From: Vulcanimicrobiales bacterium
GTDB lineage: Bacteria; Vulcanimicrobiota; Vulcanimicrobiia; Vulcanimicrobiales; Vulcanimicrobiaceae
NCBI GenBank assembly: GCA_038231455.1
Contig: JBBRLI010000024.1
Span: 1-46,474 of the forward strand
Reading direction: 5' to 3'
Length of the DNA: 46,474 nt
Numbering within the stretch: position 1 is the stretch's first letter; each line of letters opens with the position of its first letter. The notes beneath the pieces are model-generated. The model did not search any database, was not told where the DNA came from, and saw only the letters and a list, made by a program, of their open reading frames with translations. Made by a program: the position numbers and the translations under genes. This document shows positions 17,907-19,361 of this stretch, piece after piece.

Positions 17907-17936
17907 TTGACAATTGTTAAGCCTCGGGCGTAGTCT
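17907..17936 (+). promoter_or_regulatory. Sigma70 promoter with overlapping palindrome; leaderless start of HTH-ribBA
   Basis: TTGACA (17907-17912), 18 nt, TAGTCT (17931-17936), 6 nt, GTG (17943). Near-palindrome TTGACAATTGTTAA at 17907-17920. Confidence 0.7.
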
Positions 17937-17942
17937 TAGCGG

Positions 17943-19361
17943 GTGGAGATCAGTTTTGCAGCGGTGCTGGATGCCGCGATGGATGAGGCGGGGATGTCGG
18001 CAAGCGAGCTTGCCCGGCGGAGCGGTCTCACCGTCGGGGCGATCTCGTACCTGCGGTCCGGGCAGCGCGAGCCCTCGTACCGCACCGCAGAACGGCTCTC
18101 CGCCGCGCTCCCGCATCTGGCGGCGCGGCTCGCACGAAAAAAGGGAAGCATGCTCGATTCGATCGAGTCGGCGATCGCCGACATCAAAGTTGGAAAAATG
18201 GTCATCGTTCTCGATGACGAGGACCGCGAGAACGAAGGCGATCTGGTCATGGCAGCCGAGATGGTCACGCCGGAAGCCGTGAACTTTATGCGCAAGGAAG
18301 CCGGTGGCCTGATTTGCGTGCCGCTCTTGGGCGAGCGCCTCGATGCGCTACGCATTGGCGCGATGGTTGTCGAAAATACGACGCCGCTCGGTACGGCGTT
18401 TACGGTCTCCGTCGAAGCGCGCGGCCGCGTCACCACCGGCATCTCAGCCCAAGATCGCGCGGCGACAATCCAGCGCCTGGTCGATCCTACTGCCGGCCCG
18501 GCAGATTTCTTGCGACCGGGCCATACCTTTCCGCTGCGGGCGCGCGACGGCGGCGTGCTCGTGCGCGCGGGGCAAACCGAAGCCTCGGTCGATCTTGCGC
18601 GTCTTGCCGGGCTCAAGCCCGCGGGCGTGATCTGCGAGATTATGGATGAGGACGGCACGATGATGCGCCTCGATAATCTCAAGAAGTTCGCAAAGAAACA
18701 TGCGCTCAAACTCGTCACGGTAAAAGATCTCATCGCCTACCGCATGCGCCACGAGCAACTCGTCGCGCGGATTGCCGAATTCGCGCTTCCGACGACCTAC
18801 GGGAATTTCCGCGGTTATGCGTACGAGAGCAAGGTCGACGGCATGACGCATGTCGCGCTCGTCATGGGCGAGATCGGCGAGGGGAACGACATCCTCGTGC
18901 GGGTGCACTCCGAATGCCTTACGGGCGACGCGCTGCACTCGATTCGCTGCGATTGTGCGGCGCAGCGCGATGCGGCGCTTGCAGCGATTGCACGCGAAGG
19001 CCGTGGTGTGTTGCTGTATCTACATCAGGAAGGCCGCGGAATCGGGCTTGCCAATAAGCTGCGCGCCTACGCGCTGCAAGACGCGGGTGCCGATACGGTC
19101 GAAGCCAACGTGGCACTCGGACTCCCCGCCGACAAACGTGACTACGGCATCGGCTCGCAGATCCTCGTCGACTTAGGGGTCCACGAAATGCGTTTGCTCA
19201 CGAACAACCCGACGAAAATCGCGGGACTCGAAGGCTTCGGTCTGCACATCAAAGAGCGCGTGCCGATCCAAACGCCGGCCACGCCCGATAACGCGTTTTA
19301 CATGGAGACCAAACGCGAGAAAATGGGCCACTTACTCGAATCCACCCCGGCGGCAAGATGA
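17943..19361 (+). CDS. ribBA: XRE-family HTH fused to DHBP synthase/GTP cyclohydrolase II
   Basis: Residues 1-69 form an HTH (GMSASELARRSGLTVGAISYLRSGQREPS). Then DDEDRENEGDL, RAGQTEA, RVHSECLTGD, RCDC, QEGRGIGL, RDYGIG, LLTNNP.K. No stop between domains. Confidence 0.93.
   Translation: MEISFAAVLDAAMDEAGMSASELARRSGLTVGAISYLRSGQREPSYRTAERLSAALPHLAARLARKKGSMLDSIESAIADIKVGKMVIVLDDEDRENEGDLVMAAEMVTPEAVNFMRKEAGGLICVPLLGERLDALRIGAMVVENTTPLGTAFTVSVEARGRVTTGISAQDRAATIQRLVDPTAGPADFLRPGHTFPLRARDGGVLVRAGQTEASVDLARLAGLKPAGVICEIMDEDGTMMRLDNLKKFAKKHALKLVTVKDLIAYRMRHEQLVARIAEFALPTTYGNFRGYAYESKVDGMTHVALVMGEIGEGNDILVRVHSECLTGDALHSIRCDCAAQRDAALAAIAREGRGVLLYLHQEGRGIGLANKLRAYALQDAGADTVEANVALGLPADKRDYGIGSQILVDLGVHEMRLLTNNPTKIAGLEGFGLHIKERVPIQTPATPDNAFYMETKREKMGHLLESTPAAR

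Follow-up and report, generated by a model that had tools for sequence, protein, structure and literature searches.

Bacterial riboflavin genes are classically placed under FMN riboswitches, as stated in passages of PMC5397151. A protein-based solution is described for Archaea in passages of the same source: RbkR, like the fusion presented below, joins an N-terminal DNA-binding domain to an enzyme of the riboflavin pathway, uses palindromic operators in hosts without FMN riboswitches, and has lost its DNA-binding domain in some lineages (PMC5397151, in part). The trigger enzymes BirA, NadR and PutA likewise carry a DNA-binding domain on an active enzyme of cofactor or amino-acid metabolism and act by repression (PMC5397151, in part). 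A further parallel is provided by the controller (C) proteins of type II restriction-modification systems, which, according to portions of PMC2632904, possess the XRE fold, self-regulation, a leaderless mRNA and a site at a short fixed distance before the start, features that are predicted in the present case; their tandem sites recall those of one subgroup of the fusion.

The locus described here encodes an XRE-type helix-turn-helix head fused to RibBA. It lies in a window (the whole stretch of DNA that was analysed) of 46,474 nucleotides, contig JBBRLI010000024.1 of a Vulcanimicrobiales bacterium. No paper on an HTH-RibBA fusion was found in the openly accessible literature searched, and the terms “helix-turn-helix” and “DNA-binding” are absent from the main text of the recent reviews PMC12542839 and PMC13028884.

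The fused enzyme and its surroundings

The fusion ORF (17943-19361, + strand) begins with GTG and encodes 472 amino acids with no internal stop. Pfam places HTH_3 at residues 11-56 (35.1 bits against a curated cut-off of 23), DHBP_synthase at 75-266 and GTP_cyclohydro2 at 276-441. On the same strand, the helix-turn-helix domain and linker (aa 1-69) occupy 17943-18149; the DHBP synthase (RibB) domain, at 18165-18740, displays the motifs RENEGD, RPGH and GQTE, and the GTP cyclohydrolase II (RibA) domain, at 18768-19265, retains C325, C336, C338, EGRG, RDY and NNPxK. With an open frame, all three domains and the catalytic motifs kept, the in-frame fusion to an intact RibBA proposed in a sequence-only reading of this DNA is confirmed.

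The head, assigned by Pfam, an AlphaFold monomer model and sequence matches, exhibits in the model the bundle of four to five helices expected of an XRE fold, with helices at residues 5-16, 20-27, 31-38, 46-55 and 57-66. Block pLDDT values range from 67 to 92 over residues 1-60, and residues 65-69 are of low confidence; the whole model is moderate (pLDDT 71, built on 34 sequences) and has no bearing on ligands. Sequence matches of the head include C.AhdI and C.BclI (E 0.005-0.009) and the 434 repressor. Among 24 inspected of the 150 matches listed, the closest carriers of the head are pieces of the RibBA fusion and the rest are ordinary XRE proteins. A set of 41 loci gathered without recourse to a peptide pattern shows almost no variation in the turn and the predicted recognition helix, with T30, A33, I34, S35, R42 and P44 present in all and E31 in 39. 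Codon 31 (18033-18035) encodes Val in the window's genus, the sole exception to a Glu found in 100 of 102 heads; the palindrome described below is still intact there, and Val31 may weaken DNA binding. The linker between head and enzyme is variable in sequence and modelled with low confidence. It ends here before Met70 (18150-18152, +), a possible internal start for an HTH-less RibBA preceded by a purine-rich run (18138-18152). A linker Met occurs in about 20 of 99 loci (18 found by script, plus the window genome and relative G001); since some 80% of linkers do not possess one, the head appears to be an obligatory part of the enzyme in most loci.

The fused RibBA is probably catalytically active. 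Of 90 fused enzymes, 85 possess the full set of seven motifs that were checked, and the RibA half keeps three zinc cysteines together with a catalytic Arg and Tyr, the roles of which we take to be those known from E. coli RibA. The window genome, which is 93.7% complete and also holds ribD, ribE and ribH, yields only one PF00925 and one PF00926 match, making the fusion the sole RibA/RibB found. The best fold match is Mycobacterium tuberculosis RibA2 (PDB 4I14), also matched in sequence (E 1e-147), which comprises the same two enzyme domains at full length but no DNA-binding domain, the alignment beginning at residue 4 of the solved chain. RibBX, with its dead cyclohydrolase domain, is ruled out as an identity: C325, C336, C338, EGRG, RDY and NNPxK are lost in 6MNZ but kept here. 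The fused enzyme has GQTE in place of the GHTE of M. tuberculosis; this change is not a fusion-linked loss of activity, as GQTE is also found in 17 of 17 unfused sister-order enzymes. No enzyme position separates the fused forms from those that secondarily lost the head, and nothing in the aligned sequences points to a surface dedicated to sensing. Two loci contain a second ribBA- or ribB-like copy that has neither head nor palindrome (L054, G041:C136; L049, G054:C70).

The start of ribH (lumazine synthase; 19358-19867, +) overlaps the ribBA stop (ATGA). This gene lies directly 3' of ribBA in 82 of 86 loci and is likely co-transcribed with it. ribD and ribE (12641-14823, +) are separated from ribBA here, about 3 kb upstream, with a thioesterase gene and a divergent Peptidase_M30-like gene (15228-17726, - strand; 832 aa; weak Pfam match, E 3e-7) in between. 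The N-terminal part of the latter's product is Pro/Thr-rich, and a 69% identical copy stands at the same place in relative G001; the gene is absent from the other five long loci compared and, by this comparison, is a genus-level passenger outside the ribBA system. Beyond ribH, the stretch 19885-20265 (+) comprises a promoter-like TTGCAA-17-TATACT followed by the gene of a 95-aa protein, in which two treble-clef zinc domains (PF13451, PF23477) are recognised; this gene is also found 3' of ribH in several relatives. An Rfam search of the window returned two tRNAs and nothing else.

Candidate operator, promoter and their distribution

A palindromic candidate operator, TTGACA-AT-TGTTAA (TTGACAATTGTTAA), with one broken pair, lies at 17907-17920. 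Its left half-site (17907-17912, +) is the predicted -35 TTGACA, assigned by positional conservation. After an 18-nt spacer, the predicted -10 TAGTCT (17931-17936, +), of the form TAnnnT, ends 6 nt before the GTG at 17943 (+), which by promoter geometry is the predicted +1 of a leaderless mRNA. TAGTCT matches TATAAT at 3 of 6 positions, and a promoter scan did not call the window promoter. The window by itself says little about the palindrome, since 154 of its 14-mers have at most one broken pair.

Comparison among relatives places the palindrome far beyond chance. When up to 3 mismatches are allowed, 97 of 99 fusion loci have it over the predicted -35 (77 of them in the exact TTGACAnnTGTnAA form), with a family consensus of C-TTGACAnYTGTYAA-G, and in the two loci missed it is present just outside the range searched. 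The right half-site, which is promoter spacer DNA, is as fixed as the -35 (G10 in 97, T11 in 95, A13 in 96 and A14 in 96 of 97), and no conservation is seen among loci upstream of position -1 of the palindrome (-40 to -2). Four loci with ribE on the same strand, 38-211 nt upstream, retain an intact site. In the window genome, the ribBA site, left out of training, is the top matrix match of the whole genome, and only 2 of 492 TTGACA sites are followed by a right half that differs from TGTCAA at no more than one position. The best matrix score within 400 nt is below 0 in all 17 sister-order loci, against a training minimum of 11.6.

The promoter layout recurs with the site. A distance of 35-39 nt separates the start codon from the first T of TTGACA in 86 of 99 loci; TAnnnT is found at a 16-18 nt spacer in 71 of these 86 and ends 6-7 nt before the start in 67 of the 71, and a Shine-Dalgarno-like word precedes the start in 1 of 86. 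Starts 6-7 nt beyond promoter-like sites of the window genome form a modest peak (counts of 18 and 12, compared with about 5). The ribBA mRNA is predicted to be leaderless and to start on the GTG, a geometry that fits the C-protein-like layout of an own site close before the start, the start position being itself predicted.

Head and site may also vary together within the family. A second site stands 28-31 nt upstream in 10 of 29 loci that do not encode Glu43 and in 0 of 68 that do; tandem sites of this subgroup, 28-30 nt apart, were recorded in L004, L005, L008, L102, L127, L137, L151, L173 and L181. Loci of the subgroup also have more G at palindrome position 6, and most of the 11 loci in which the site lies 29-34 nt from the start, too close for a -35, belong to those without Glu43. 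This co-variation, seen among loci that are kin, is a lead and not a test. Other palindromes were noticed in passing. TTGACRnnTGTCAA cores with ATA/TAT flanks, similar to the ribBA site, precede ArsR-like or glyoxalase-like genes (families assigned by eye) in L068, L082 and L084. A second, ATACTTGAAACnnnCGTTTCAAGTAT-like palindrome lies 30-150 nt upstream of the operator in L063, L065 and L180 and is probably the site of a regulator of the neighbouring gene.

As the sequence-only reading had remarked for this locus, no FMN riboswitch is recognisable: RF00050 matched 0 of 61 genomes of the class, unfused relatives included, and 7 of 14 control genomes. As the unfused relatives share this trait, replacement of a riboswitch by the fusion within this class is ruled out. 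A wider regulon was not apparent in the window genome, where a matrix built on 96 sites gave 3 matches above 14 bits against a median of about 4 for column-shuffled matrices; of the two matches other than ribBA, one falls within an ABC-permease-like frame and the other precedes an Rrf2-like gene (family by eye). In relatives, the 20 extra pattern matches inspected have no common gene behind them, and 575 kb of loci hold 5 extra sites, 3 of them far ends of IS1595 insertions. No candidate operator was seen before ribD/ribE.

The fusion is, on the genomes compared, an order-level trait of two families of one Vulcanimicrobiota order. It is present in 100 of 102 distinct loci (from 121 examined), the other 2 being interrupted by Ns or the end of a contig; a head pattern served to find 80 of the 121, and these are unable to show losses. 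In 40 of 40 loci with an intact head, the head is in frame with no stop between it and the enzyme, and with the palindrome kept in 97 of 99 loci neither of the two comparative findings named in advance as fatal to the proposal, a stop in orthologues or a palindrome without conservation, was encountered. The “1 TGA inside” flags of G035 and G018 do not denote a split gene, as no stop lies between head and enzyme, and the apparent split in G342 is likely a sequence error, a further frameshift being present inside ribBA of the same assembly. The 17 sister-order loci examined contain neither the fusion (0/17) nor the palindrome (0/17), and most have ribE directly before ribBA. Across 61 related genomes, the match begins at the head in two families of the window's order and in 0 of 19 sister-order genomes. 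In a 301-genome sample of the phylum, a query made of head and enzyme matched 196 of 206 family genomes, in nearly every case at the fusion's score, and genomes of other families score for the enzyme part only or do not match, both statements holding among the matches listed and the latter on scores alone. Of a further 52 family genomes, 45 have the fusion, 5 gave no match, 1 is frameshifted and 1 weak. Of 107 genome-collection matches, 80 loci were kept; 68 bear names of Vulcanimicrobiota (Eremiobacterota, WPS-2) or of genera that we assign to it, and 5 bear names outside it, three of which are in the tree, nested among fused enzymes. Counts and tree include loci L009, L011, L022 and L076 from unpublished genomes (G022, G030, G029, G020), on which alone no conclusion rests.

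Ten low-scoring family genomes were checked: the head is present in 7, disturbed by gaps, frameshifts or contig ends, and absent in 3 (G191, G178, G127), which do not possess the palindrome either. The three head-less enzymes nest among fused ones. AU tests, run on 52 of 111 rows, rejected all fused rows as one clade (p 0.023) and did not reject the three head-less enzymes as one clade (p 0.064); the tree thus suggests that the head was lost secondarily two or three times. G127 keeps TTGACA-17-TAGCCT-6-ATG with a right half-site decayed to GTTTGC. In G191 and G178 the entire upstream region is changed, and their site loss weighs less because it would be expected anyway. Two of the three losses fall in the branch of the window's genus, where control may be looser, given Val31 and the possible Met70 start.

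Three loci (L111, L132, L159) harbour, 2.1-3.3 kb upstream of the head, an element with inverted ends, CAAG(A/C/G)T(A/G)ATATAC, between two copies of the palindrome's central 8 bp; the transposase of L159 is of the IS1595 family. In these loci the element end rebuilds the TTG of the -35. Such an end stands beside 14 of 97 operators, against a background of 5e-5 per position. A search of 301 genomes with the end pattern, which was derived from ribBA-linked ends and detects this IS1595 subfamily only, found 21 ends (L183-L203) in 17 genomes and 0 in 32 sister-order genomes: 15 directly adjoin the operator, three are situated 2.1-2.3 kb upstream, two bear the operator 8-mer of their own genome and one is unplaced. 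The window contains no IS1595-type end. Insertion accounts in part for the differing cargo found between ribE and ribBA, but not for the conservation of the site. No paper on this IS1595 target was found in the openly accessible literature searched.

Proposed autorepression and its alternatives

These observations make it very likely that the head binds its own upstream palindrome, and probable that the fused protein is an autorepressor of ribBA-ribH. Binding would entail repression because the left half of the palindrome is the -35 itself, so that the occupied site would block RNA polymerase. With a leaderless mRNA, control would be exerted at transcription initiation, and the negative feedback would set the level of RibBA and RibH. 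DHBP synthase and GTP cyclohydrolase II domains form dimers in solved relatives; since the head has no cI-type dimerisation domain, the enzyme half probably supplies the dimer that would bring two heads onto two half-sites. As only the ribBA site rises above chance and ribH lies directly 3', the target would be ribBA-ribH alone, and with no site at ribD/ribE the loop would cover half the pathway. The system probably originated when a short, leaderless, self-regulating XRE gene landed before ribBA and was then fused to it.

The joint gain and loss of domain and palindrome provides strong comparative support for self-regulation, within the limits that among the three losses only G127 retains the promoter, that the losses possibly represent two events and that all loci are kin. 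The self-regulating riboflavin enzyme put forward in the sequence-only reading gains further ground from this joint loss, and its probability is that given above for autorepression.

Tuning of the loop by a ligand (substrate, metal or flavin), which the sequence-only reading had proposed for GTP, ribulose-5-P or flavin, is rather doubtful, and flavin in particular is an unlikely one. No locus examined has the fusion split by a real stop, which suggests that the enzyme half matters and speaks for ligand control; the absence of a fusion-specific enzyme surface speaks against it, and we know of no flavin site in RibBA. Any tuning would most likely act through the oligomer state of the enzyme and not along a rigid allosteric path, since the variable, poorly predicted linker fits tethering better than rigid allostery. 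The most ambitious form of the proposal can be advanced only tentatively: a first riboflavin-specific protein repressor of bacteria, order-wide and riboswitch-free, in which RibBA would sense its substrates or downstream flavin via its oligomer state and shut a leaderless promoter, the operator of which would be the landing site of an IS1595 subfamily.

The alternative that survives best, although improbable, is that the head, once bound to the site, acts as an activator, or as an activator when scarce and a repressor when abundant, in the manner of C proteins. A dimer over the -35 excludes sigma region 4 by established promoter logic, and the single site of most loci does lie on a perfect TTGACA, where a bound dimer would have this effect. 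The resemblance of the head to C.AhdI and C.BclI, the weak -10 elements (TACGCT, TAGGCT) and the tandem sites of one subgroup favour activation, as do the leaderless geometry common in C genes (PMC2632904, in part) and the activator role proposed for RbkR (PMC5397151, in part); C promoters, however, have no clear -10 in the portions of PMC2632904 covered, whereas TAnnnT is found here in 71 of 86 loci.

Slightly less probable still is that the palindrome serves a factor acting in trans, such as an ArsR-family repressor, the head binding elsewhere or doing another job. Such a factor could be suspected from the TTGACAnnTGTCAA cores that precede ArsR-like genes in relatives of both orders (L068, L082, L084) and from the weaker matrix match before the probable Rrf2-like gene (by eye) of the window genome. 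However, those cores have ATA/TAT flanks and the ribBA sites C/G flanks, the ribBA site is the top match of its genome, no ribBA without the head has the site, and the number and sequence of the site shift with head residue 43. That the palindrome is a mere by-product, of a -35 plus transposon target or of back-to-back divergent -35 boxes, with the head a tolerated passenger, is very improbable: IS1595-family elements do insert in its central 8 bp with ends that rebuild TTG, and the upstream gene of the window is divergent, but insertion has no means of conserving its target, an element end has left no trace at 77 of 97 sites, the variable -40 to -2 region retains no divergent -10, the site survives where ribE stands upstream in the same orientation, and the predicted recognition helix is near-invariant. 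Autorepression by the fused protein is the reading compared below with described systems.

Comparison with described systems

The fusion would do the same job as the FMN (RFN) riboswitch, the control of rib genes in bacteria, but the latter is RNA-based and FMN-sensing, and was found in none of the 61 genomes of the class. RbkR differs in carrying a winged helix-turn-helix on a riboflavin kinase, in handling riboflavin/FMN directly, in commanding a regulon and in probably activating it (PMC5397151, in part). The fusion has an XRE head on the entry enzymes, the known ligands of which are GTP and ribulose-5-phosphate, a site on the -35, and its own operon as only target; its domains, HTH_3, DHBP_synthase and GTP_cyclohydro2, rule out that it is RbkR itself. 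C proteins are short stand-alone dimers often encoded before an endonuclease gene (PMC2632904, in part). The fusion's site is another sequence, and a head fused to RibBA and followed by ribH rules out that it is an R-M controller protein.

Two traits of trigger enzymes are found here, a domain-enzyme fusion maintained across a lineage and a candidate operator that is present or absent together with the domain. The head of NadR is also of XRE type. BirA and NadR act at the end of their pathway and sense its product, whereas the fusion stands at the start. In an order of soil bacteria in which no riboflavin RNA switch was found, a candidate regulatory protein can now be named, along with its site of 14 bp and the operon that it would target. 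This lineage displays the gain of a regulator, the duplication of its site and their loss, together with a transposon that inserts into the operator while rebuilding it. If autorepression is true, the range of enzyme-regulator fusions would be widened beyond terminal enzymes that bind a product, to one that stands at the entry of a pathway.
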